A DNA stretch of 64,000 nt from an uncultured bacterium (GTDB taxonomy: Bacteria > Hydrothermota > UBA3072 > B12-G15). The notes below the pieces were generated by a model, which worked only from the letters and a program-made list of their open reading frames with translations, ran no database searches and was not told where the DNA came from. The position numbers and the translations under genes are program-made. The stretch is from the NCBI GenBank assembly GCA_965612735.1, contig CBFDSV010000003.1:6113-70112 (forward strand). The letters run 5' to 3'. Positions within the stretch are counted from its first letter, which is position 1. Each line of letters starts with the position of its first letter. Shown here in pieces: positions 6,801-60,218 of this stretch.

Positions 6801-6910
6801 ATCAGGCTGGAATTCATAGAACTGAATTTAAATTGAGACTTGGTGTATACTTTGTTGTTATGGAAGCCCAGGGAAAGATTTACAGGAAAAAGGTTATCAT
6901 TTTGAGGTAA
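3845..6910 (+). CDS. Very large secreted multidomain protein (beta-propeller-like repeats, Ig/FN3-like domains, MAM/anchor-like domain) with T9SS-type C-terminal sorting domain
   Basis: AAGGAG RBS precedes the ATG at 3845 and the N-terminus looks like a signal peptide. Repeated ...GNIYATGY/...YIAGY motifs are present. The C-terminal ~80 aa (ITFGLSHQTDISIRIYDITGRLV...GVYFVVMEAQGKIYRKKVII) resemble the Por/T9SS CTD. Confidence 0.65.
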   Translation: MFLFFLISQTFNWVHVSNGTASAGSSSDCDYAYSVVVSNDTIFSGGFIGNTYKAGHIVALDTSGTSLWTYTGTYPTSDCEIYDIVSDGEGNIYATGYLIQSSPDIWILKIKDGSLVWEKTYDGGVSGFDIGHCITYGTDSYIYIAGENEAPSDSGANICILKVDTAGNILHEITIDGGYSADRPNDILYTEVNGEPYIYVAGYMMKKNPVSGMPERRFYVCKFDTALSPTSLESYIFTQVSNSEAYAITRFPDGNIYVVGYENKSLPWGEEISVVALTPDTLGEVFHYFYHGTNGDSNGNSDRGYDIVSDNSGYLYLCGYSYYDAQQVNNAVIICIDTLGNQQWLYEYNPHLYTPDDIFRSITIYKNFVFATGYTLPYGTVYRKLLLAGLTTSGTEIFNTYYPDGDSSEGYNVVYSNGNLYIAGMVEETNDHKFAVFSYSVEIDTIPPAKVTLISPDSGIISSQTAQVFTWKSVTDASGIKGYIFQLSYEPSFASTIIDTMLSDTAFSQNFSNDTTFYWRVQALDSAGNYGEWSNIWDITIDGTVPTTPVLISPVNDTILYLSSVQFQWTSSSKGTPVHYVIKIDSIGPGFISPFLVDTVDTNVYNYTFTQDGEFWWSILAFDDAGNTSGTSIDSFILDKTPPVIDSVTIWTDTTYRGPFEVRMKVVDVSPLSAVELYYHINSGTSVTSNPVSIGNNWFVDTIPEIPGTEEDTVYYSIYAADAGGNESEYPSAGAISFRVLEDTTSYTIVWENDFESDSGNMEAAGDWEWGDPEYSGSYSGPSDSHSGTLCWGTVLTGDYSNSSNSILTTPPITIPATLDSFVYLSFYMWFYSENYYDGGNVKISLDNTTFSVIQPLFPSYDTVIYSGNAGIPGENAWTDTIGAHNWIQAKFDLSNYVGETVYIRFHFGSDGSVVRPGWYIDDVTIYGLGRTGTVSKDIPEKDFLCVDPLSEKLEITFGLSHQTDISIRIYDITGRLVRKPIRGSYQAGIHRTEFKLRLGVYFVVMEAQGKIYRKKVIILR

Positions 6911-6913
6911 AAA

Positions 6914-6938
6914 GGGGGCATATGCCCCCTTTTTAATT
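6914..6938 (+). terminator. Rho-independent terminator (GGGGGCATATGCCCCC hairpin followed by a T run)
   Basis: Perfect GC-rich hairpin 4 nt after the stop codon, followed by TTTTT. Confidence 0.8.
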
Positions 6939-7530
6939 TATTGCCCTTTCATATTCCATCAAAAGTTCAATGGAACCGTCGTAATCAACAAGCTCCATCC
7001 ACTCAAGTTTTTTCCAGACCCCTTGCTTCAAGGTCTTCTTTAAAGGAGATAAAACTTCATTTCTTTTGATTTCGCATTCTCAACAATCTATTCCATAACA
7101 TCCGGAACCTTCGTTACTATAACAACCCCATACTGTATGAAGGTTATAGCATCACCTTCGTTTGTTTTGCAGGGATGGAGGTTGAAAATTTTACATTTTG
7201 TTGAATTGATAAATTGCTCCTCCGTCGCTATATACTATAGACCACCTTGTGCACGATGTTGCCGCACAAAAAATCTTGGTTTGTGGTGGTACAGGGTGAG
7301 ATGAAGTTCACTTATAGGTCAAGGGAAAATCCCACACGACAAAGCCCAGGAACATATGTTCCCTGTACCCTCTTTATCTTGCATTATATCTTTGTTTTAA
7401 CAGGAAAGAGAAAACCAGCCCCATAATAGTATGAGTCACTATCATGTTTTAATAAAGGTGTTGAGTATTGCAAAGATTGCAGTTCAAAGAAGAAAAGCCC
7501 TTTTACTTTAAAAAGCGCATAGACTTCAAA

Positions 7531-9069
7531 TTATTTTATATACCCCAGAACCTTTTTTATAAGTTTCATGTTCAGGTCTGTTTTGTTTTCAAAAAGGCCC
7601 CTGTATGCAAGGGTTGCCTTATCCAGGTCATAGCATGTTGAATTCTCTATGTTAACAAGAAGACCTTTAAGCCTGCTCTCCCTGAACTCCTCCTGGTGTT
7701 TCACATAGAATGCCTCACAGCAACTCCCTATGTATTCATTTATTCCCTTTTTTTTCATATCCTCAAAATTGTCAAGAAGGTCTTCAAAACTTGTTACAGT
7801 TCTTGGTTCAAGCCCTGCTTCCTCTGTCCATTCATACCCCTCACCGACTTCACAATCACCGCATATTGTACACTCATCCTGGTGTCTGAAGGGACACTTT
7901 GCCTTCTTTGCACAGTACGGAAAGAGGAAGACTTCTGGGGTGAATTTATCACCCGGCCTGAAGTTCACATTGAAAAGGTTGTTGGCCTCATCAGGTGTGA
8001 AACCTTCCTTAACCCACCTCCATTTGTTGAATACCTCAGTGAATGCACCAAGAAAATCTTCAAGGGGGAGTCCGCCTTCCTTTTTTATAAATTTTTCCAC
8101 AGTTGAGATTATCTTCCTTTCATTGAACGGAATATTCTTGAGTAGCCTTTCAAGGTCAAATATTGATTCCCTATTTTCAATGAAAAAATCACCTGTTATA
8201 TATGTTGCCCTGAGCATATTGGTTCTTGCATTCACCACAGCATTCACCTTTATGGTGCCAAAGGAAGACCTGTATGTTCCTGTTAAAAGACCCTGTAATT
8301 CTTCTGGAAGGCTTATTCTGTATATCCATTCTTCAGACTCAAAGTATGGGAGTAATGACTCAATCCTCTTTTTTTCTTCAGGTGTCAACTTTTCAGGTCT
8401 GAATTCCAGACCCAGCACCTCTTCAAGCCCCTTCCTTATAGCATTTTTCAATTCTTCTCTTGTGGGAATCCTTCCAAGTTCATTCTCAATGCAGGTTACC
8501 CTTTCTCTCACAGAGTCAATCTCCTTTGGTTTTAATTTTTCTATGGGAACCTTCAGGGAATAAAGCATTTCCTGTATCCAGTCCTGAACCAGAAGTGTTC
8601 CCTGGAACAGAAAAGCACCCCTGTAAGACACACCACCCATACCGGAAATCTTCCTTCCCCCAACCTCAATGTCATTTCTCTTTTTGAAGACCGCTTTTAT
8701 CCCCAGGGTTCCAAGTCCCCTGGCAACTGCCTCTCCTATAACTGAATACATTTTTTGGGGTGGATAGGGGAACATTGATACAGGTGCAATGATTTCCCAC
8801 CCAATCTGGGATGGGTCAAAGAATATTGCACCACCACCAGTGATTCTTCTGTTTATATGGTATCCCTTTTTCTCACAATACTCCCTTCTTATCTCCTGTT
8901 CAACTGCCTGGAAATATCCAACCAGACATGCAGGTGGAGAGAAGGAGAGGAATCTTAATGTTGGCATTGGTTTTTCTGACTGCACTTCCAGGAGTGCCTG
9001 GTCAGCAGCCATGTTCCATGCACCTGTTCTGTGTCCAGTGTCAATCTCTCTCAGTACCATGTATATCAA
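7531..9069 (-). CDS. lplA: Lipoate-protein ligase A (LplA) fused to a ~180-aa Cys-rich C-terminal extension
   Basis: N-terminal ~330 aa carry the LplA catalytic motifs (NRRITGGGAIFFD; GRKISGMGGVS...GTLLV). The extra C-terminus contains CPFRHQDECTICGDCEVGEGYE...GSCCEAFYVKH. Confidence 0.75.
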   Translation of the reverse strand: MIYMVLREIDTGHRTGAWNMAADQALLEVQSEKPMPTLRFLSFSPPACLVGYFQAVEQEIRREYCEKKGYHINRRITGGGAIFFDPSQIGWEIIAPVSMFPYPPQKMYSVIGEAVARGLGTLGIKAVFKKRNDIEVGGRKISGMGGVSYRGAFLFQGTLLVQDWIQEMLYSLKVPIEKLKPKEIDSVRERVTCIENELGRIPTREELKNAIRKGLEEVLGLEFRPEKLTPEEKKRIESLLPYFESEEWIYRISLPEELQGLLTGTYRSSFGTIKVNAVVNARTNMLRATYITGDFFIENRESIFDLERLLKNIPFNERKIISTVEKFIKKEGGLPLEDFLGAFTEVFNKWRWVKEGFTPDEANNLFNVNFRPGDKFTPEVFLFPYCAKKAKCPFRHQDECTICGDCEVGEGYEWTEEAGLEPRTVTSFEDLLDNFEDMKKKGINEYIGSCCEAFYVKHQEEFRESRLKGLLVNIENSTCYDLDKATLAYRGLFENKTDLNMKLIKKVLGYIK

Positions 9070-9880
9070 CAGAACAACAAGTGTATTTGAAGTTCAATAA
9101 GTACCCTGATTTTTCAGCATGTGATAAAGCATCATCAGACCAGAGCGCCATTCTGTCAATAAGCCCTTCCTCTATCAGTCTTATTTCAAGTTCCCTTCTG
9201 TATCTACCCCTTGGCCTTGCACATCCTAATGAAACCTCCTGGAACCTTTGCCTTGCATACCTGAATACCTCAATAACCTCATCAATTGGTGGGGGTTCTG
9301 CACTCAGTATGTCTGGCATGAGAACAACGAGGACCACCCTTTTATTACTGAAATAATGAATGAGATTCAACGCCTCAAATTCACCTTTTATTTTTCCTCT
9401 ATTCACCCCAATGACAACATGAGGTACTATATCTGGCCCGTACATGTAAAGGTTATCAAGGCTTTTTTTAATAATGGAGTGGTCATTCAGGTGGTATATT
9501 TCTCTGAAGGTTTCTTCATCCCCAATCACATCTATCAGTGCCTGCCTTATCCCCGCCTTCTTTATGGCAGTGGCAAGTTCTCTGTTCACATTTAGCCCTG
9601 CGTGGCATGTAAGATAAAGGTTTGTTTTGAAGGTAGAAAGCCTTTCAAGAAAGGGCATAAGAGGGATTGTGCCATCTAAAAGACATCCTCCAGTTATCAA
9701 TGCACCAAGCATCCCATCCTTTTCAAGCATTTTAAGTGTATCAATCAGTTTTTCCGGTGTTTCACAATGGATCATACCCTGAAGAAGGTATCCCCTGCAG
9801 TGAACACATCCAAGTGCACAACTTCTTCCTGTTATGGAGATGGCAGGAAAGAGCCCTGTTTTTCCGTCAATGGTTATCAT
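9041..9880 (-). CDS. Radical SAM protein, BioB/LipS-like (candidate LipS-type lipoyl synthase subunit)
   Basis: CALGCVHC forms a CxxxCxxC motif. Additional C-terminal Cys residues (LGCARPRG, YTCCSVD) are present. The ATG at 9880 overlaps the upstream stop, although the long form starting at 9934 is also possible. Confidence 0.6.
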   Translation of the reverse strand: MITIDGKTGLFPAISITGRSCALGCVHCRGYLLQGMIHCETPEKLIDTLKMLEKDGMLGALITGGCLLDGTIPLMPFLERLSTFKTNLYLTCHAGLNVNRELATAIKKAGIRQALIDVIGDEETFREIYHLNDHSIIKKSLDNLYMYGPDIVPHVVIGVNRGKIKGEFEALNLIHYFSNKRVVLVVLMPDILSAEPPPIDEVIEVFRYARQRFQEVSLGCARPRGRYRRELEIRLIEEGLIDRMALWSDDALSHAEKSGYLLNFKYTCCSVDIHGTERD

Positions 9881-10809
9881 TCCGGGAAGATAGAAATCCA
9901 GTACCTTTCTACTGTGCTTTTCAGATAATTCCATTGTTCCTCCATGTCCTCTTTTCTTTTTTTTCTTCTCCTTATGAAAGGTATGTATGTTTTATTGAGT
10001 TCTTTCCTGTAATCTTCCATACTGATTGAACCGGTGACGAGTTTTCCTGCAAGTCTTCCAGTATCAATTGCAGAAAGAATACCAGCACCTGTTAAGGGGT
10101 CCGTAAATCCACCAGCGTCACCTACAAAAAGAATCTTTTGTTCCATAAAGGGATGTGGTTCTTCCTGTGGTATCAGACCACCAGTTATTTTGATGGGCTC
10201 ACCTTTTATAAATCCCATTTTCTTAAAAAATTCTATCACCCTGGGTATCATGGAACTGATTCTTCCCCTCATTCCAAGACCTACATTTACCATCTCTCCT
10301 CTGGGGAAGCACCAGGCATAACCGTGTTTTATTTCTTCAGTGAACCATACTATTGTGTATTCAAGTGGTTTTACCAGTTTGAACCTCATATTCACTGCAG
10401 AAAGGTGTTCCTTCTGTGGTATCAGGCCTTCTATTGCCCTGCCTGGACCTGATGCTATGCATATCCATTCTGTCCTGTACTCACCCCTATCTGTTCGCAC
10501 CCTGCCATTTTTTACATACAGTACTTTTTCTCCAGTATGGACATCACACTTCAGTGATGATAACCAGTTCTTCTGCCATGCTTTCCTGTCAATAACCTTT
10601 CCCTTTACTGGAGAAAACTTTTCACCACCAGGATATATGGTAAGCATACCCTCTGTTTTCTGAATACAGGGAATATCAAGGAATGGTGGTATCCATTCCG
10701 CACAGGAAATATTTTCATAGGGTGTTTTTTCTCTCTCCAGGAGCAAAACTCTCCCTTCAACAGTAGAAGCGCAGGACAGTCCTGCGGGACCTGCACCCAC
10801 CACAATCAG
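9877..10809 (-). CDS. FAD-dependent oxidoreductase, geranylgeranyl-reductase-like family
   Basis: VVGAGPAGLSCAS is a GxGxxG dinucleotide fold. The probable GTG start lies 2 nt after the upstream gene's TGA, suggesting translational coupling. Confidence 0.6.
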   Translation of the reverse strand: MIVVGAGPAGLSCASTVEGRVLLLEREKTPYENISCAEWIPPFLDIPCIQKTEGMLTIYPGGEKFSPVKGKVIDRKAWQKNWLSSLKCDVHTGEKVLYVKNGRVRTDRGEYRTEWICIASGPGRAIEGLIPQKEHLSAVNMRFKLVKPLEYTIVWFTEEIKHGYAWCFPRGEMVNVGLGMRGRISSMIPRVIEFFKKMGFIKGEPIKITGGLIPQEEPHPFMEQKILFVGDAGGFTDPLTGAGILSAIDTGRLAGKLVTGSISMEDYRKELNKTYIPFIRRRKKRKEDMEEQWNYLKSTVERYWISIFPE

Positions 10810-11834
10810 TCTATATATACCTTAAGCTCCTTTTTTATAGACTCTATCTCCTCTGGAGAGGGAGGAAAAGGAAAATTTCTAGGTTCCTCGGATGGTTTCT
10901 CATTTGCATAGGGTCTGTTGCAGGCAACCTCTCCGTCTCTTCCAGTGCACCCGGATGTCATGAAGGGTTTTCCAGATGCTATATATGGTCCAATCTCTAC
11001 CCCAAAGTCTATTATCCTGTCCTTTTCATCAAACCTCATTATGTCTGCCCTTGAAATGCCATTATCTATAAGAAACCTTGCAAGTTGTAGTCTTCTATAA
11101 GTGGAGATATGTGGTCTTGGATGTTCCTGAAGTTTTGAAAGGGGTTCTGGAAAAAATGAGAACAGGTGGGTTTCTCCACCCATATCCCTGATTTTCTGGA
11201 TTGCATACACCATTTCCTTCTCTGTTTCTCCAATACCAACGATGAAATGAGAACCCACATTCCCTTTACCAAAGTATTCAAGTGCAATCTCAAATGTTTT
11301 CCAGTATCTTTCCCAGTTGTGTGGTCCATTCACACCCCTTCCCCTGTGGTAATCAAAAAGAGTGTCTGTGGCAGCATCAATTGCAATACCTATTTTGTCT
11401 GCACCTGCTTCCTTGAAAGTGAGAAAGTCCCTTTCAAGGGTCACTGTGGGTGAAATAAGCATGGAGATGGGAACATCTGAAAACATCCTTATCTTTCTTG
11501 CAATCTTCACTGTATCCTCAACAGAGCGTCTTCTTGTCACCATTGATATGCACACCCTTTTAATCTCCTTTTTCTCTTCAAGTTGTGCAATCCTTTCTGC
11601 AATCAGGTCGGTGGGGAACACAGGCCAGTCAACCCTTATGAAGGATTTGTCCTGATACTCACCAGGTCTGATTCTGGATAGACCGCAATATGAACAGTTG
11701 GCAGTACATCCATCCCTGTATGTAACAAGAAGATTGATGCAGTAAAGTTTGGCATCCCTGTAAAATCTTCCAGGAACAAGGTTAAGGGTTATTCCTGCAG
11801 CAAGGCTTGTTCTCACATAATCAGGGCTTTCCAT
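10806..11834 (-). CDS. Radical SAM protein, biotin-synthase-like (candidate LipS-type lipoyl synthase subunit)
   Basis: CTANCSYCGLS forms a CxxxCxxC motif. The BioB-like block GSHFIVGIGETEKE lacks the BioB CSGG cysteine. A C-terminal Cys pair is present (SGCTGRDGEVACNRPY). Confidence 0.6.
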   Translation of the reverse strand: MESPDYVRTSLAAGITLNLVPGRFYRDAKLYCINLLVTYRDGCTANCSYCGLSRIRPGEYQDKSFIRVDWPVFPTDLIAERIAQLEEKKEIKRVCISMVTRRRSVEDTVKIARKIRMFSDVPISMLISPTVTLERDFLTFKEAGADKIGIAIDAATDTLFDYHRGRGVNGPHNWERYWKTFEIALEYFGKGNVGSHFIVGIGETEKEMVYAIQKIRDMGGETHLFSFFPEPLSKLQEHPRPHISTYRRLQLARFLIDNGISRADIMRFDEKDRIIDFGVEIGPYIASGKPFMTSGCTGRDGEVACNRPYANEKPSEEPRNFPFPPSPEEIESIKKELKVYID

Positions 11835-11952
11835 AACTTCCTCCGTGGTTGTTTTCGGTGAATGCTATCAGAAAACTGAAGAAAAATCAAGCGATGAATT
11901 GTTGACTTTTCGGGAAGATAATATTAAACTGTGAAAAAGAAAGGAGGAGGTC

Positions 11953-15497: not shown

Positions 15498-15567
15498 TTG
15501 TTTCATTATAAGACACACTGTTTCAAGTTAAATCATCCAGTAAAATAAACCCCTTTGATTATCAAGG

Positions 15568-15596
15568 TCTTATAACTGGCACAGAATATGTATAAT
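15568..15596 (+). promoter_or_regulatory. Candidate sigma-70 promoter with a perfect -10 TATAAT (15591-15596) preceded by TG
   Basis: TATAAT lies 22 nt upstream of the AGGAGG RBS of the Gly-rich gene. The -35 is weak (TCTTAT). TGGCAC at 15577-15582 also resembles a sigma-54 -24 element. Confidence 0.4.
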
Positions 15597-15618
15597 GTCT
15601 GCAAAAAGGAGGTGTGTT

Positions 15619-15900
15619 ATGTTTGGATATGGATGGTATGGTCCTGGTTTTGGATTTGGTTGGGGTAGAGGCTGGGGTAGAGGTTGGGGTAGAGGTTGGG
15701 GTTTTGGAGCAAGGCTTGGTTATTGCCCCTGGACAGGTCTTCCACGGGGATGGAGGTGGGCCTATGGTGGATTTTATCCCTACTGGGGTGCATATAATCC
15801 CTATTTTTATACAAATCCATATGTAAATCCATATGGATACTGGGGGTATCCACCAGAGCCCTACAACCCACAGCAACCTGAAACTTCAGGGAATAAGTGA
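15619..15900 (+). CDS. Small Gly/Trp/Arg/Tyr-rich low-complexity protein with (GWGR)4 and NPY-type repeats
   Basis: AGGAGG RBS, then MFGYGWYGPGFGFGWGRGWGRGWGRGWGFG...YNPYFYTNPYVNPYGYWGYPPEPYNPQQPE. Minus-strand and alternate-frame ORFs over the same DNA are repeat artefacts. Confidence 0.55.
   Translation: MFGYGWYGPGFGFGWGRGWGRGWGRGWGFGARLGYCPWTGLPRGWRWAYGGFYPYWGAYNPYFYTNPYVNPYGYWGYPPEPYNPQQPETSGNK
15658..15705 (+). repeat. 4x tandem 12-bp coding repeat (GGT/C TGG GGT AGA), encoding GWGR
   Basis: Direct tandem copies visible in the sequence. Confidence 0.9.
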
Positions 15901-15909
15901 GGTGGAGAA

Positions 15910-16515
15910 ATGAAGATACTTGTTACATCCACAGGGCCCACCCTTGATTCCCCTGTGGATATGAGGTTTGGAAGGTGTGCCTACTTCATACTTGTTGACC
16001 CTGAAACAATGGAGTATGAGGCAATCAGTAATCCCTATGCACAGGCACCGGGTGGTGCAGGTATTCAGACTGCACAGATGGCACTCCAGACAGGTGCTTC
16101 TGCGATTATCACTGGTTCTGTTGGTCCAAATGCATCTGGTGTACTTGGAACAACAGGGATAAGGGTCTTTGAAAGCCCGAATGTAAGTGTTGAAGAGGCA
16201 GTGAGGATGTACAAGGAAAATAAATTACAACCTTTAACTGTGGGAGGTGGTTTTATGCCAGGAGGATTTGGAATGGGAGCAGGGTTTGGTGGTGGATACG
16301 GTAGGGGTGGTGGTTTTGGAAGAGGTTATGGTAGAGGCGGAGGTTATGGAGGTTATGGTGCCTATGGTGGCTTTGGTCCAGGATACAATCAATGGACACC
16401 ACCCCAGATGAACCCTGCTGAAGAACTTCAGATATTGAGAACTCAGGCGGAGATGCTTAAAAGGCAACTTGATGCAATAGAAAGAAGAATCAGGGAACTT
16501 GAAAATTCAGGCTGA
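15910..16515 (+). CDS. NifX/NifB-family (dinitrogenase FeMo-cofactor-binding fold, PF02579-like) protein with RGG/YGG low-complexity tail and C-terminal coiled coil
   Basis: MKILVTSTGPTLDSPVDMRFGRCAYFILVD...IITGSVGPNASGVLGTTGIRVF matches the fold. The tail reads GGGYGRGGGFGRGYGRGGGYGGYGAYGG, followed by LQILRTQAEMLKRQLDAIERRIRELE. Confidence 0.7.
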   Translation: MKILVTSTGPTLDSPVDMRFGRCAYFILVDPETMEYEAISNPYAQAPGGAGIQTAQMALQTGASAIITGSVGPNASGVLGTTGIRVFESPNVSVEEAVRMYKENKLQPLTVGGGFMPGGFGMGAGFGGGYGRGGGFGRGYGRGGGYGGYGAYGGFGPGYNQWTPPQMNPAEELQILRTQAEMLKRQLDAIERRIRELENSG

Positions 16516-16546
16516 TGATGTATGATTGTGAAAAAGGAGGTGAAGA

Positions 16547-16861
16547 ATGAGGATAGCAGTGAGTGCTACAGAGGCAGATTATAATGTTGCTGGTGTTGAC
16601 CCGAGATTCGGAAGGTGTTCATTTTTCATAATATACGATACAGAAACAGGTGAATGGAGTTCCTTCCCCAATCCAGCAAAGGATGCAGTGGGTGGTGCTG
16701 CGATAAAGGCTGTGGAATTTCTTAAAAGTAAGAATGTTGATGTTGTTGTTACAGGTAACCTTGGTCCCAATGCAACATCTTCTCTTACAGCAGCAGGGAT
16801 AAGGGCAATAACAGGAGTAACTGGAAAAGTGCTGAATGCGGTGAAGAGGGCGGGTGAATGA
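16547..16861 (+). CDS. NifX/NifB-family small protein
   Basis: MRIAVSATE...DPRFGRCSFFIIYDTETGEW...VVTGNLGPNA matches the fold. Confidence 0.7.
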   Translation: MRIAVSATEADYNVAGVDPRFGRCSFFIIYDTETGEWSSFPNPAKDAVGGAAIKAVEFLKSKNVDVVVTGNLGPNATSSLTAAGIRAITGVTGKVLNAVKRAGE

Positions 16862-17691
16862 AGGTAGCCATTGGAAGTGGAAAGGGGGGGACGGGAAAGA
16901 CGCTGCTTTCAACCTCCCTTGCCCTTTCACTTGAATATGTGAGATACCTTGACCTTGATGTAGAGGAGCCCAATGGTCATATTTTCATAAAACCAGACAT
17001 CAGGGAAAAAATACCATTCTCAATCCCTGTACCAGAAATAGACTTCAACCGCTGTACATATTGTGGTGAGTGTGCAAAGGCATGCGAGTTCGGGGCAATA
17101 TTTGTAGGGACAAACACGGTGAATGTCTTTGAAAAACTCTGCCATGGGTGTGCCTCATGTAAACTTGCATGCCCTGAAAATGCAATAAGTGAAAGGCCAT
17201 ATGTTGTTGGTGAAATATCCATTGGAAGGCGTGACAAGATTGAATACATAATGGGATACCTGAAGTTGACAGAGGCATTATCAACCCCACTTATCAGATA
17301 CATAAAAAAAGAGTATGGAATGGTCTCAGGTGACATTATTATGGACGCTCCACCAGGGACTTCATGTCCATTTGTTCAGTCTATTTCTGACACTGATTTT
17401 GTTATTCTGATCACTGAACCCACCCCCTTTGGGCTCTCAGACCTTGAGATATCTGTTGAAATTGTCAGGGACATGAAATTGAAAGCGGGAATTGTGATAA
17501 ACAGGGCAGACCTTGGTTCAGAAGAAGTGAAGGAGAAGATAAAGGGGCTCGGGCTTCCTGTACTTCTTGAAATTCCATTCAGTAAGGATATTGCAGTGGG
17601 ATATTCAAAGGGTATTCCGCTTGTTGATGTACTGCCAGAATACAGGGAGAAGATGAAAAAACTGTGGGAGAGAATAAGGGAGATGGTATGA
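16858..17691 (+). CDS. MinD/ParA-family P-loop ATPase with inserted 2x[4Fe-4S] ferredoxin domain
   Basis: Deviant Walker A GSGKGGTGKT. Ferredoxin-type motifs CTYCGECAKAC and CHGCASCKLACP. Start overlaps the upstream stop. Confidence 0.75.
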   Translation: MKVAIGSGKGGTGKTLLSTSLALSLEYVRYLDLDVEEPNGHIFIKPDIREKIPFSIPVPEIDFNRCTYCGECAKACEFGAIFVGTNTVNVFEKLCHGCASCKLACPENAISERPYVVGEISIGRRDKIEYIMGYLKLTEALSTPLIRYIKKEYGMVSGDIIMDAPPGTSCPFVQSISDTDFVILITEPTPFGLSDLEISVEIVRDMKLKAGIVINRADLGSEEVKEKIKGLGLPVLLEIPFSKDIAVGYSKGIPLVDVLPEYREKMKKLWERIREMV

Positions 17692-18578
17692 TAAGGGAAG
17701 TTGCCATTGTCAGTGGAAAGGGTGGAACAGGAAAGTCAACAATTACGCTTGGACTTGCTTCTTTACTGAAAGACAAAGCAGTATTTGTTGATGCAGATGT
17801 TGATGCCCCTGATATGTACATTGTTATGGAGCCAGAACTTCTTAAAAAAGAGGATTTTGAAGGACCAAGATTCCCTGTTTATATACCTGATAAGTGTACA
17901 GGATGTGGATTGTGTGAGCAAAATTGCAGGTTTGATGCCATCAAAATAGTGGATATGAAACCTATTTTCAATGAATTTAAGTGCGATGCCTGTGGTGTAT
18001 GCTGGAGGGTCTGTCCATTTGATGCTATTGAGGTGAGGAGGGATATTTCAGGTGAAATATATATTTCCCGTTCAAGATTTGGCCCATTCGTCCATGCAAG
18101 ACTGTTCCCTGGAAGAGAGAATTCTGGAAAACTTGTAAGCAGGTTGAGGGTTGTGGCAAAGGCCGTGGCTGACGATGCAAAGAAAGATCTTATAATACTT
18201 GATGGTCCTCCTGGTGTTGGATGCCCTGTGATTTCAACCATCACAGGGGTGTCACTCACTGTGGGTATTGTGGAACCTACCCTTTCAGGGATACACGACA
18301 TTATCAGGGTTTATGAACTATCAACATTCTTTAATATTCCCTTTACAATTGTGATAAACAAGAGTAATATAAACCCTGATATGGTTCAACGGATAAAGGA
18401 GTTTGCCAGTGAAAATGGCATAAAGATACTTGGAGAGATACCATTTTCAAGGAGGATTGTAGAGGCACTTCTTCAGAGGAAAACCATAATTGAGGGTGAT
18501 GTTGAGGATGGAATTAAGGAGGAATTAAAAAGGATATGGAATGGAATCCAGTCAATGCTCTCGCTGACGGGATTATAA
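17688..18578 (+). CDS. MinD/ParA-family P-loop ATPase with ferredoxin insert (paralog)
   Basis: VSGKGGTGKST, CTGCGLCEQNC and CDACGVCWRVCP motifs. ATG at 17688 overlaps the upstream TGA. Confidence 0.75.
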   Translation: MIREVAIVSGKGGTGKSTITLGLASLLKDKAVFVDADVDAPDMYIVMEPELLKKEDFEGPRFPVYIPDKCTGCGLCEQNCRFDAIKIVDMKPIFNEFKCDACGVCWRVCPFDAIEVRRDISGEIYISRSRFGPFVHARLFPGRENSGKLVSRLRVVAKAVADDAKKDLIILDGPPGVGCPVISTITGVSLTVGIVEPTLSGIHDIIRVYELSTFFNIPFTIVINKSNINPDMVQRIKEFASENGIKILGEIPFSRRIVEALLQRKTIIEGDVEDGIKEELKRIWNGIQSMLSLTGL

Positions 18579-57719: not shown

Positions 57720-59835
57720 CCTGTATTTTCTCCCTGTTTTTGTACTGATTCCCCATAAGCCCGAAAAAATCAACCTCTCTAAATATTTTACATCACCTGT
57801 TGATAGTATCCAGATTTTATCAACAGATGGGGTGGACATGTATCCTATTATTGAGGGTAAGATAATGGTTCAACTTAAAGGAAATGTGGGGAGCGCAAGA
57901 ATAAATGTCTTTTCTGGAGGGGATTCATTTGTGAAGGATATGCTCTTTGTCAGGTCAAGAAGTAGAAAGATAAAATTCATTTACAGGGGGAGTGGAAGGA
58001 ATGTTTATCTTGCCGGGAGTTTTAATGGATGGAACAGTAATGCTCTCCCCATGATAAAAACAGATTCTGGATTTGTTGCAGAGATTCAGTTGAGTCCGGG
58101 CAGGTATGCGTACAAGTTTGTTGTTGATGGGAAATGGATTCAGGATACGAACAACCCCCTTTCTGAGGATGATGGATACGGTGGAAGGAATTCTATTCTG
58201 ATTGTGAAAGGAGGACATGAATTTATTGATGATATTTCACCCTCCCATTACAGGTTTCCTTTCACCTTGAGCAGGGTTTACATCCTTAATGGTGATAGAC
58301 TTCTTGATGAGGAAAACTATTCAATAAAAGGAAGGGATGTTTTCTTAAAAAATTTAAAAACAGATGTAATAAGGATTGTTGGCATTGGAAGGAAGGGTGA
58401 GATTTCAGGTCCATTTACCTTCAATATAAAACCCGAACCACCCATTGGTGGAATAATGTATTTCCTCTTTGTTGATAGATTCTTTGAGGGTGATGGCAGG
58501 AATATGAGGAAGATAAAAGACCCTGAAGTTCCAGATATTGCAAATTTTATGGGTGGTGATTTGAAGGGTGTTATATTGAAACTTAAGGATGGATATTTTG
58601 ATTCACTTGGTATAAGTGTTCTCTGGATTTCACCTGTATTCCTCTGTCCTGAAGGTGCATACAGGGATGCACTACCTCCCCATAGAAAATTCACAGGTTA
58701 TCATGGCTACTGGCCTGTTGACCTTTACAGGATAGACCCCTCCTTCGGGGATATGGATGACCTTAAAGAACTTGTTCAGGAGTGCCACAAAAGGGGCATA
58801 AAGGTCTTCCTTGATATGGTCTTAAACCATGTGCATGAGAGTTCACGGGTTTACAAAAAACACAGGGACTGGTTTACCTCAATCTATCTCCCTGATGGAC
58901 AAAAGAACATAAGGCTTTTTGATGAGCATCCCTTCACAACATGGTTTGATGAGTTTCTCCCCTCTTTTGATTTCTCAAAGGACAGTGTGGTTGAATATCT
59001 TTCCTCTGCTGCTAAGTTCTGGATTAAGGAAGTGGGTATAGATGGATTCAGGCTTGATGCAGTGAAGCATATTCCCCATGAATTCTGGAGGGTATTAAGG
59101 AGAAGGATGGAGGTAGAAAGACATGTCTGGATGATAGGTGAGACAATATCATCAAGGGAGAAGATAAATGAATGGATATCTCCTTCAGAACTTGATGGTC
59201 AGTTTGACTTTCCTCTTTTCTGGGTGTTGAGGGATGCACTTGCTGGAAGGACTGGCATGGACAGGCTCATGCAGGAGATCGTTCGTTCACAGGATGCCTT
59301 TTCAGATGGGCTCTGGGTCCCATTTATGGACAACCATGACTTCGGAAGGCTTGTCTCCTTTATAAATGGTGACCTTCTGGGGAATGAAAAGGAACTTGCC
59401 TTTGTATCCCCTCCCGGAAAGCCTGAGAAAAAATCCTATCACCTTATGAAGATAGGGTTTGCCATCCTCTACTCCCTGCCAGGACTTCCAATGATTTACT
59501 ATGGTGATGAGATAGGGCTTCCAGGTGCTGGAGACCCTGATAACAGAAGGATGATGAGGTTTAAACATGATTCTGATGAGGAACTGCTTCTCAAAGAGGT
59601 GAAGAAACTCGCAGGTTTAAGAAGGAAGAGCAGGGCCTTAAGATTTGGAAGGGTGGTACCCATAAAGGCAGGGAATGAATACATGGTATATATGAAAAAG
59701 TACTTTTCCGAGAAGGTTGTGTGTGGGTTCAACAGGGGTGAGAAGGATATTGTTGTGGGATTCAAAGACCCATTCACGGGTAAACATATAAAATTAACCA
59801 TACCCGGTGAAGGGTATAGAATGGAGGAGATATGA
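57712..59835 (+). CDS. GH13 alpha-amylase-family enzyme with N-terminal CBM48/E-set glycogen-binding domain
   Basis: CBM48-like (VYLAGSFNGWN...YKFVVDGKW). GH13 regions (DMVLNHV; GFRLDAVKHI; GETI; MDNHD). Confidence 0.8.
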   Translation: MYSLYFLPVFVLIPHKPEKINLSKYFTSPVDSIQILSTDGVDMYPIIEGKIMVQLKGNVGSARINVFSGGDSFVKDMLFVRSRSRKIKFIYRGSGRNVYLAGSFNGWNSNALPMIKTDSGFVAEIQLSPGRYAYKFVVDGKWIQDTNNPLSEDDGYGGRNSILIVKGGHEFIDDISPSHYRFPFTLSRVYILNGDRLLDEENYSIKGRDVFLKNLKTDVIRIVGIGRKGEISGPFTFNIKPEPPIGGIMYFLFVDRFFEGDGRNMRKIKDPEVPDIANFMGGDLKGVILKLKDGYFDSLGISVLWISPVFLCPEGAYRDALPPHRKFTGYHGYWPVDLYRIDPSFGDMDDLKELVQECHKRGIKVFLDMVLNHVHESSRVYKKHRDWFTSIYLPDGQKNIRLFDEHPFTTWFDEFLPSFDFSKDSVVEYLSSAAKFWIKEVGIDGFRLDAVKHIPHEFWRVLRRRMEVERHVWMIGETISSREKINEWISPSELDGQFDFPLFWVLRDALAGRTGMDRLMQEIVRSQDAFSDGLWVPFMDNHDFGRLVSFINGDLLGNEKELAFVSPPGKPEKKSYHLMKIGFAILYSLPGLPMIYYGDEIGLPGAGDPDNRRMMRFKHDSDEELLLKEVKKLAGLRRKSRALRFGRVVPIKAGNEYMVYMKKYFSEKVVCGFNRGEKDIVVGFKDPFTGKHIKLTIPGEGYRMEEI

Positions 59836-60218
59836 TAAGGATTGCTTGTGCAACAGATGATGATGTACACTTTTACCATGGTCATTTTGGTGATGCACCG
59901 TACTACCTTATCTATGAGATGGAGGAGGACGGCAGGTACAGTGTGGCGGAGAGAATAGAGAATACAGCACCAGAGGAAAGGATGCACGGAGACCCTGAGA
60001 AGGCAAAGGGAATAATGGAGATTATGAAAAAGGAATTTGTGGATGTCCTGATAAATATCCAGTTTGGTCCAAACATAAAGAGAATAAGGAAGAACTTTGT
60101 ACCTGTTCTCTCCAATATTAAGGAGATTGAGCCAGCATTAAATCATCTGGCAAACCGCATGGGAGAAATCAAGGAAGAGTTAAAAAACCAGGAAAAAAAG
60201 ATTATTATTCTTCCTTAG
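59832..60218 (+). CDS. NifX/NifB-family domain protein (third copy in window)
   Basis: MIRIACATDDD...HFGDAPYYLIYEMEEDG...INIQFGPN fits the PF02579-like pattern. Confidence 0.55.
   Translation: MIRIACATDDDVHFYHGHFGDAPYYLIYEMEEDGRYSVAERIENTAPEERMHGDPEKAKGIMEIMKKEFVDVLINIQFGPNIKRIRKNFVPVLSNIKEIEPALNHLANRMGEIKEELKNQEKKIIILP

Follow-up and report, generated by a model that had tools for sequence, protein, structure and literature searches.

The stretch of DNA considered here, called the window below, comprises 64,000 nucleotides (64 kb) of contig CBFDSV010000003.1, from an uncultured bacterium of the Hydrothermota. On its minus strand, the open reading frame (ORF) map places four tightly packed, co-directional ORFs at 7531-11834 (Table 1), in agreement with a preliminary description of this DNA that had seen four overlapping genes. 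These are lipS2 and lipS1, for two radical S-adenosylmethionine (SAM) proteins, lipT, for a flavin adenine dinucleotide (FAD) oxidoreductase of the geranylgeranyl reductase (GGR) family, and a gene for a lipoate-protein ligase, Lpl(AB), that carries a DUF116 domain at its C-terminus. Homology, conserved ligands and synteny make it very probable that the locus is an operon, complete in itself, for protein lipoylation by way of LipS1 and LipS2. An operon of LipS1, LipS2 and LipT in a bacterium is already known and has little novelty by itself. The ligase fusion, LplA::DUF116, is apparently an undescribed, widespread variant, and it provides a first and concrete pathway context for DUF116, whose function has so far been guessed at by computation only.

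The genes are packed to the point of overlap, by 4 nt (ATGA) between lipT and lipS1 and by 20 nt between lipS1 and the ligase gene. Between lipS2 and lipT there is a gap of 2 nt if lipT begins at GTG, or an overlap of 13 nt with its probable ATA start. The lipS2 ATG is preceded by GGAGG at 5 nt; the likely ATG starts of lipS1 and of the ligase are those chosen by gene callers on other contigs. One flank holds a convergent gene for a secreted protein (a protease) with a type IX secretion system (T9SS) tail, the other a divergent gene for a membrane protein and a gene for a GGDEF protein. These flanking genes are unrelated, so that the four genes form a stand-alone operon. The identical block has been found on independent contigs from other samples, and the four genes recur together in dozens of other species; the arrangement is therefore not due to chance.

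Table 1. Features of the lipoyl locus. Positions are those of the window; aa, amino acids.
Feature	Position	Strand	Description
lipS2	10806-11834	-	342 aa; radical SAM, CTANCSYC and GIGETEKE block
lipT, GGR-family FAD oxidoreductase	9877-10818	-	313 aa from probable ATA 10818; 308 aa from listed GTG 10803
lipS1	9041-9880	-	279 aa from likely ATG 9880; longer ORF to 9934, 297 aa; radical SAM, CALGCVHC
Whole ligase ORF	7531-9069	-	512 aa; 509 aa from likely ATG 9060
Lpl(AB) part of ligase	8041-9060	-	catalytic domain ~aa 1-250, putative LplB-like accessory domain ~aa 251-340
C-terminal part of ligase	7534-8040	-	helical linker ~aa 341-375, DUF116 domain ~aa 376-509
AAGGAG, Shine-Dalgarno-like hexamer	10827-10832	-	8 nt upstream of ATA 10818-10816, within 3' end of lipS2
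Divergent intergenic region, 118 nt	11835-11952		upstream of lipS2; presumed operon promoter region (from ORF map)

LipS1, LipS2, LipT and the ligase core

The two BioB-like radical SAM genes had been suspected to encode relatives of LipS1 and LipS2 beside a lipoate ligase, and family scans bear this out. The LipS2 protein scores 211.6 bits against NCBIfam NF053743 (E 1.6e-62, model positions 2-292 of 292), compared with 54 bits for variant_rSAM, 49 for MSMEG_0568 and 32.3 for BioB (TIGR00433). LipS1 scores 184.6 bits against NF053742 (E 2.6e-54, model positions 7-268 of 268) and matches no other family. A grouping with BioB or another family was looked for in these scans and not seen; the BioB equivalog cut-off of 225 bits is far from reached by the LipS2-like protein, and the LipS1-like protein has no match to that model. 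Both radical SAM genes of four other fused-ligase loci likewise classify as LipS1 and LipS2. In those loci LipS1 scores 188, 222, 231 and 242 bits, straddling the NCBIfam equivalog cut-off of 230, and LipS2 scores 225-256 bits, in each case below the cut-off of 270.

The cluster ligands of the Thermococcus kodakarensis enzymes have been mapped by mutagenesis (Neti 2022, PMC9585515). In LipS1 of that organism C27/C31/C34 hold the radical SAM cluster, with C230, C276/C277 and a conserved H159 as further ligands; in LipS2 the corresponding residues are C39/C43/C46, with C85, C276 and C279. The window LipS1 (279-aa numbering) has radical SAM cysteines C21/C25/C28 and auxiliary ligand equivalents C220, C268/C269 and H154, all 98-100% conserved in 56 homologues. 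In the window LipS2 the radical SAM cysteines are C43/C47/C50 and the putative auxiliary-cluster cysteines C95, C296 and C305, an equivalence read from positions along the chain, with no aligned T. kodakarensis sequence behind it; all six are 100% conserved in 55 homologues. The extra C-terminal cysteine pairs pointed out in the preliminary description are thus real (C268/C269 in LipS1, C296/C305 in LipS2) and shared by the homologues. Given these motifs and scores, the pair is taken to consist of genuine LipS1 and LipS2 orthologues from a somewhat divergent clade. That they merely lie beside a ligase and are instead enzymes of the biotin synthase type, or other sulfur enzymes or maturases, is very improbable: equivalog cut-offs are missed and the public annotation reads 'radical SAM protein' or 'hypothetical protein', but the LipS2 and LipS1 models lead every other family by over 150 bits, homologues from the same type of cluster stand at or above the LipS1 cut-off (231 and 242 bits), and conservation extends both to the ligand residues and to the neighboring lipoate ligase gene, in relatives also to a GcvH gene.

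The gene between lipS2 and lipS1 encodes a protein of the GGR family (TIGR02032, E 1.1e-28, and Pfam GGR_cat) with a GxGxxG motif and an invariant cysteine, in 'SCAEW', near the flavin site; it aligns with the flavoprotein gene of five other loci. On family and gene position this gene is lipT. The preliminary description had placed the flavoprotein outside the described lipoyl system, wrongly, since bacterial lipS1-slpl(AB)-lipT-lipS2 clusters with LipT as an explicit component have already been reported (Tanabe 2023, PMC10332631). LipT is presented there as an oxidoreductase that binds FAD, 'possibly delivering electrons' to the sulfur insertion step, and lipT is found in about 53% of the bacteria that contain LipS1/S2 (PMC10332631). 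No LipT-named model was among the NCBIfam matches. The wording 'geranylgeranyl reductase-like' for LipT was not confirmed in the main text of Cao 2018, and the GGR assignment comes from Pfam and NCBIfam only.

The lipT gene of the window apparently lacks a canonical start. At the position where close relatives have ATG, GTG or TTG there is a TAA (10824-10822), and the codons after it, G-I-Y-R-L-I-V-V, still give an in-frame Rossmann beta-1 strand, which initiation at the listed GTG 10803 would cut off. The start region, AAGGAG (10832-10827) included, is identical in three independent contigs, which makes initiation at ATA likelier than error; lipT probably initiates at ATA 10818-10816. A programmed -1 frameshift joining LipS2 to LipT was considered because the LipS2 C-terminus 'KVYID' followed by 'LIVVGAGPAG' resembled a Rossmann N-terminus; in addition, the last part of lipS2 contains an in-frame slippery heptamer of the dnaX type, A_AAA_AAG (10837-10831, minus strand). 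The frameshift was rejected. A shift at the heptamer runs into TAA two codons past the slip, relatives start lipT at the aligned position with ATG, GTG or TTG, and AAGGAG stands 8 nt before the in-frame ATA. The heptamer most likely simply reflects the A-rich Shine-Dalgarno region of lipT.

The ligase core has a catalytic domain and a putative accessory domain of the LplB type, which ligases of this kind need for adenylation. Its catalytic domain matches Pfam LplA-B_cat (PF21948) with 142 bits, and TIGR00545 gives 163.7 bits, below the equivalog cut-off of 280. The LplB-like domain is fainter: Lip_prot_lig_C (PF10437) scores 22.3 bits (E 1.3e-4, aa 267-340 of the 512-aa ORF) with a gathering score of 24, and the NCBIfam LplB model 23.5 bits with a cut-off of 65. 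Many homologues have a precomputed PF10437 match. The catalytic lysine, K137 in 'GRKISG', is invariant among 37 ligase homologues, and is taken to be equivalent to K133 of E. coli LplA. The nearest named relatives of the ligase domain, at 65-66% identity, are from metagenome-assembled genomes (MAGs) of candidate division WOR-3. Joining a ligase to a component of sulfur insertion has a precedent in LplA-LipA fusions (NCBIfam NF053790), where the ligase is joined to the synthase; the window protein matches that model in its ligase portion only (109 bits, cut-off 800).

Two known systems are close to the window locus. The sLpl(AB)-LipS1-LipT-LipS2 pathway of sulfur oxidizers (Thioalkalivibrio, Thiorhodospira and Hyphomicrobium; Cao 2018, PMC6067878; PMC10332631) has the same four functions in one cluster, and there too the gene order is variable. 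When the four Thioalkalivibrio genes, lipT included, were supplied on a helper plasmid, LbpA was lipoylated in E. coli (PMC10332631). The window differs from it in the C-terminal extension of the ligase, about 170 aa (the helical linker and about 135 aa of DUF116), which is unmentioned in PMC6067878 and PMC10332631, and in its host, an uncultivated bacterium related to WOR-3, with no shdr or lbpA genes in the window. The LipS2 proteins of the fused-ligase clusters tested, at 211-256 bits, all lie below 270, and LipT and sLpl(AB) are likened to their counterparts by family and position only. The second system, LipS1 (TK2109) and LipS2 (TK2248) of T. kodakarensis with a bipartite LplAB (PMC9585515), has the same two-enzyme synthase with positionally equivalent motif and ligand sets. 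In T. kodakarensis, however, lipS1 and lipS2 are more than 130 genes apart, no LipT or DUF116 has been described with them, and the ligase is split where that of the window is fused.

LipA commonly co-occurs with LipS1/S2 in bacteria (PMC10332631). A search of all six frames of the 64-kb window found neither of the LipA motifs, the N-terminal Cx4Cx5C (CEEAxCPN) and CTRxCxFC, as the preliminary description had stated, nor a LipB motif or the lipoyl-lysine motif of GcvH or E2.

Three points count against these assignments. The window proteins miss the NCBIfam equivalog cut-offs (211.6 against 270 bits for LipS2, 184.6 against 230 for LipS1), so that NCBI would not name them automatically. The last cysteine pair of LipS2 is C-x8-C, compared with C-x2-C in the T. 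kodakarensis enzyme. Finally, the name LipT comes from family and position and not from direct comparison with the LipT proteins used in experiments (Thioalkalivibrio, Hyphomicrobium).

The DUF116 domain and its distribution

The ligase C-terminus belongs to Pfam DUF116 (PF01976), with 28.5 bits against a gathering score of 25 (aa 378-481, model positions 40-143 of 155); homologues score 32-42 bits. The preliminary description had noticed this cysteine-rich appendage and considered it foreign to the described lipoyl system. It is indeed absent from that system in the literature searched, but it is no orphan sequence, being a member of a Pfam family whose fusion to the ligase is widespread. In an alignment of 37 full-length ligase homologues (43-67% identity) eight cysteines of the last 130 residues are invariant: C383, C389, C397, C400, C403, C447, C448 and C476. 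C397-x2-C400-x2-C403 is the CxxCxxC of the DUF116 domain. Y382, K385 and R392 are also invariant, and K454 and H455 nearly so.

The AlphaFold2 model of the DUF116 region is a confident one, with a predicted local distance difference test score (pLDDT) of 90 and a predicted template modelling score (pTM) of 0.87; for the full-length ligase the pTM is 0.74. The modelled fold is flavodoxin-like, a parallel beta-sheet with flanking helices. A cysteine-rich loop without regular structure follows strand 1, the CC pair lies at the end of strand 3, and C476 comes after strand 4. PDB searches gave no specific structural relative of the domain. The one substantive account of DUF116 found, from comparative genomics, gives the family two transmembrane helices, six or more conserved cysteines (CxxCxxC among them) and, by prediction, a flavodoxin-like fold; it proposes, from computation only, a metal-binding electron-transfer domain (PMC5898192). 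The model agrees with that proposal, which supports a redox role for DUF116.

Stand-alone members of the family (DUF116/COG1852/arCOG02078, e.g., MMP0162; Makarova 2015, PMC5898192) share the CxxCxxC motif and the predicted fold with the window domain. They have two N-terminal transmembrane helices, and they occur near genes for sulfite/nitrite reductase or ArsA-like proteins, or fused to polyprenyl synthetase. In the window protein the two helices are absent; the domain follows a soluble ligase and helical linker, which take the place of the membrane anchor. No paper linking the family to lipoate was found in the literature searched for DUF116, COG1852, PF01976, arCOG02078 and IPR002829. The terms 'DUF116', 'cysteine-rich' and 'additional domain' are not present in the text of Tanabe 2023, where ligases were classed by catalytic domain and PF10437 only (PMC10332631) and where the extension would for that reason not have been noticed.

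The fusion itself is common. Among the 120 best ligase matches listed, all are near full length (423-573 aa), with 43-100% identity and 79-100% coverage of the query; their source names include Caldisericia, Actinomycetota, Chloroflexota, Desulfobacterota, Planctomycetota, Bacillota, WOR-3, Odinarchaeia and Promethearchaeota. A relative with the DUF116 domain is encoded by 336 GTDB species genomes (one genome scanned per species), bacterial as well as archaeal and nearly all of them MAGs. A search of 1.84 billion sequences with the domain only, as a single-sequence query, gave 173 representatives, nearly all of them ligase fusions, about 500-570 aa long, in which DUF116 is C-terminal. With few exceptions the carriers are anaerobes that have not been cultivated (WOR-3, Caldisericia, Desulfomonilaceae, Thermoplasmatota, Asgard archaea), which may be why the fusion has been overlooked.

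Neighborhoods were counted in 80 retained loci of the 336, where ORFs were called and searched with hidden Markov models (HMMs) derived from the window together with five reference loci. Ligase and DUF116 are fused in 77 of the 80; of the other three, two are truncated where the contig stops and one is divided between neighboring ORFs. Where both flanks reach 5 kb or more (40 loci), LipT is found within 6 kb in 38, LipS1 in 32 and LipS2 in 31. All three partners are present in 26 of these fully flanked loci and none in 2. LipT is the immediate neighbor of the fused ligase, often overlapping it, in 52 of the 80 loci. Within 10 kb of the fused ligase it occurs in 68 loci, compared with 16 for GcvH.

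A few proteins carry still further fusions. P0222 is a single chain of LplA, DUF116 and LipT, the C-terminal part being 29% identical to the window LipT (E 1e-27). In the cluster representatives P0292, P0296 and P0273, LplA-DUF116 is followed by a CdhB-like domain (PF02552), and P0292 has two LplA catalytic domains. CdhB, the epsilon subunit of carbon monoxide dehydrogenase, packs beside a [4Fe-4S] cluster (PMC11493965).

Some lineages show departures from the window arrangement. For example, five MAG loci from Caldisericia/Caldisericales (L013, L015, L019, L021 and L023) have the order lipS2-lipT-lplA::DUF116, with no lipS1 and no room for one. In ten other loci (L005, 1275-7998; L007, 4007-7865; L032, L033, L058, L059, L061, L070, L071 and L080) the module adjoins a conserved set of genes for a GcvH-type lipoyl carrier, a GlcD-like FAD oxidase and a CCG-domain iron-sulfur protein whose best match is TfrB/HdrD-like. 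Hosts of this set are Desulfobacterota, Actinomycetota, Thermoplasmatota and Terraquivivens archaea, and it is absent from the window. In the bacterial loci L005, L007, L032 and L033 the set also includes an unannotated protein of about 265 aa. The set is probably a lipoyl-dependent redox system, served as a client by the fused-ligase module of those loci.

Possible roles of DUF116 in lipoyl assembly

A LipS1/LipS2 operon with a DUF116 redox element on its ligase is the best explanation for the locus as a whole, and a likely one. Lpl(AB) would activate free octanoate (or lipoate) with ATP and attach it to the lysine of a carrier, e.g., GcvH, presumably encoded elsewhere in the genome. The two sulfurs of the octanoyl chain would be put in next, C8 being the LipS2 site and C6 the LipS1 site on the analogy of T. 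kodakarensis, and each enzyme would use its own auxiliary [4Fe-4S] cluster. Homology shows the attachment and the two insertions, whereas the parts given to LipT and DUF116 are inferred. LipT would be the source of electrons, as the literature supposes. DUF116 would be a flavodoxin-fold iron-sulfur domain, probably with two clusters, one on C389/C397/C400/C403 (C-x7-C-x2-C-x2-C), the other on C383, C447/C448 and C476 at the C-terminal ends of strands 1, 3 and 4. From the LipT flavin it would relay single electrons to the radical SAM clusters of LipS1 and LipS2, and, because of the tether to the ligase, a single assembly would carry out reduction, octanoylation and sulfur insertion.

That DUF116 acts as such an iron-sulfur one-electron relay is a tentative proposal, to be given somewhat less than an even chance. 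It is suggested by the arrangement of the cysteines, the modelled fold, the nearly constant company of LipT and the extra fusions to redox modules, and by the need of radical SAM enzymes in general for a low-potential one-electron donor. A two-electron flavoprotein normally needs such a mediator in order to supply their clusters. With a generic ferredoxin system, LipS1/S2 of T. kodakarensis made only 1-1.5 turnovers (PMC9585515). A concept of this kind is found in human FDX1, an iron-sulfur one-electron carrier devoted to lipoyl synthesis by LIAS (PMC10470009). The likeness is an analogy only, since FDX1 has an unrelated [2Fe-2S] fold, is a separate protein and serves a LipA-type synthase.

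Several observations weigh against this proposal. Metal or cluster binding by DUF116 is predicted from the cysteines, and the assignment of two clusters is drawn from the topology of the model only. A pure electron carrier would seem more naturally fused to LipT or to a radical SAM enzyme than to a ligase. The single chain P0222 may be an assembly or frameshift artefact, because the ligase and lipT genes usually overlap. No partner lies within 10 kb of the fused ligase in two fully flanked loci, L031 and L018, the latter a Caldisericia chromosome of 2.2 Mb. Lastly, proteobacterial clusters work in E. coli, reportedly without DUF116 (PMC10332631), and the domain is therefore not universally required.

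The strongest of the other roles is that of an iron-sulfur cluster or sulfur carrier that rebuilds, after every turnover, the sacrificial auxiliary clusters of LipS1 and LipS2, much as NfuA or IscU do for E. coli LipA, with LipT giving the reducing equivalents for this reassembly. LipS1 and LipS2 are thought to consume their auxiliary [4Fe-4S] clusters, and about one turnover is seen with a physiological reductant (PMC9585515), so that the clusters need a factor to regenerate them. Two of the eight invariant cysteines of DUF116 stand next to each other (CC), a feature shared with the auxiliary site of LipS1, and fusion to the ligase would put the domain where the substrate protein is held. The role is nevertheless unlikely. 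In PDB searches the fold was unlike those of Nfu, IscU and A-type carriers, the extra fusions are to flavin/nucleotide-type redox modules (LipT, CdhB-like) and not to cysteine desulfurases or scaffolds, and suf, isc and nif scaffold genes are not conserved beside the module in the 80 loci.

It is improbable that DUF116 and LipT form instead a thiol/disulfide module working on the product, which would oxidize the nascent dihydrolipoyl/lipoyl group or reduce it, acting like CCG-domain (HdrB-like) iron-sulfur proteins or standing in for dihydrolipoyl dehydrogenase. The combination of CC and CxxC in DUF116 loosely recalls CCG domains. LipT has its invariant cysteine near the flavin site, and in several lineages the module adjoins GcvH, the GlcD-like flavoprotein and the CCG iron-sulfur protein. 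The tightest and widest linkage is to lipS1/lipS2, however, and not to GcvH, which trails LipT by 16 to 68 loci of 80; the DUF116 domain also has no Pfam CCG match and no specific structural match to HdrB.

Still less probable is a structural or regulatory zinc module, perhaps a docking platform for LipS1/LipS2 or the acceptor, with neither redox nor cluster chemistry. Eight cysteines could equally hold two Zn ions, no computed result separates Zn from iron-sulfur clusters, and the pTM of the full-length model suggests a fairly fixed arrangement of domain and ligase. A zinc module would leave unexplained the steady partnership and occasional fusion with flavoproteins and other redox modules, and the CxxCxxC within C-x7-C-x2-C-x2-C is typical of cubane cluster sites (PMC5898192).

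For the preferred reading, a redox element on the ligase, a wider statement can be made with reserve: DUF116 may be an unrecognized kind of multi-cluster iron-sulfur domain and, with LipT, a dedicated reducing system from NAD(P)H to radical SAM enzymes, possibly also a cluster-repair system, built into the ligase in such a way that one complex carries out octanoylation and both sulfur insertions; the case for this falls somewhat short of probable. Two questions in the pathway are what reduces the radical SAM clusters of LipS1 and LipS2 in vivo and how their sacrificial auxiliary clusters are renewed. A DUF116 domain carried on the ligase and nearly always found beside LipT is a candidate for the missing redox or repair partner. 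If a DUF116-LipT reducing system exists, LipS1 and LipS2 could turn over catalytically, and DUF116/COG1852 as a whole, a family conserved in archaea as well as in bacteria, would have its first biochemical function.

Flanking DNA and minor features

About 4 kb from the operon, at 15562-18578, lies a cluster of genes for small NifX/NifB-type 'Nitro_FeMo-Co' proteins, one of them with a DUF5320 glycine-rich tail. They are followed by two CbiA/ParA-type ATPases with ferredoxin motifs, and another Nitro_FeMo-Co gene occurs at 59832-60218. The ORFs at 15562-15900 are of low complexity and rich in G, W, R and P on either strand. The Nitro_FeMo-Co and ATPase genes relate to iron-sulfur or cofactor handling and are not conserved beside the lipoyl module in other species.

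A promoter and terminator scan of 6.5-12.5 kb gave nothing meaningful, the only match upstream of lipS2 being a weak sigma-70-like one on the opposite strand; an Rfam scan of the same region likewise gave nothing meaningful. Between the ligase stop and the convergent gene is a gap of about 620 nt (6908-7530) with no convincing ORFs and no Rfam matches. It opens with a perfect 12-bp palindromic hairpin, AAAAAGGGGGCATATGCCCCCTTTTT, at 6908-6935, which could terminate transcription from both sides.

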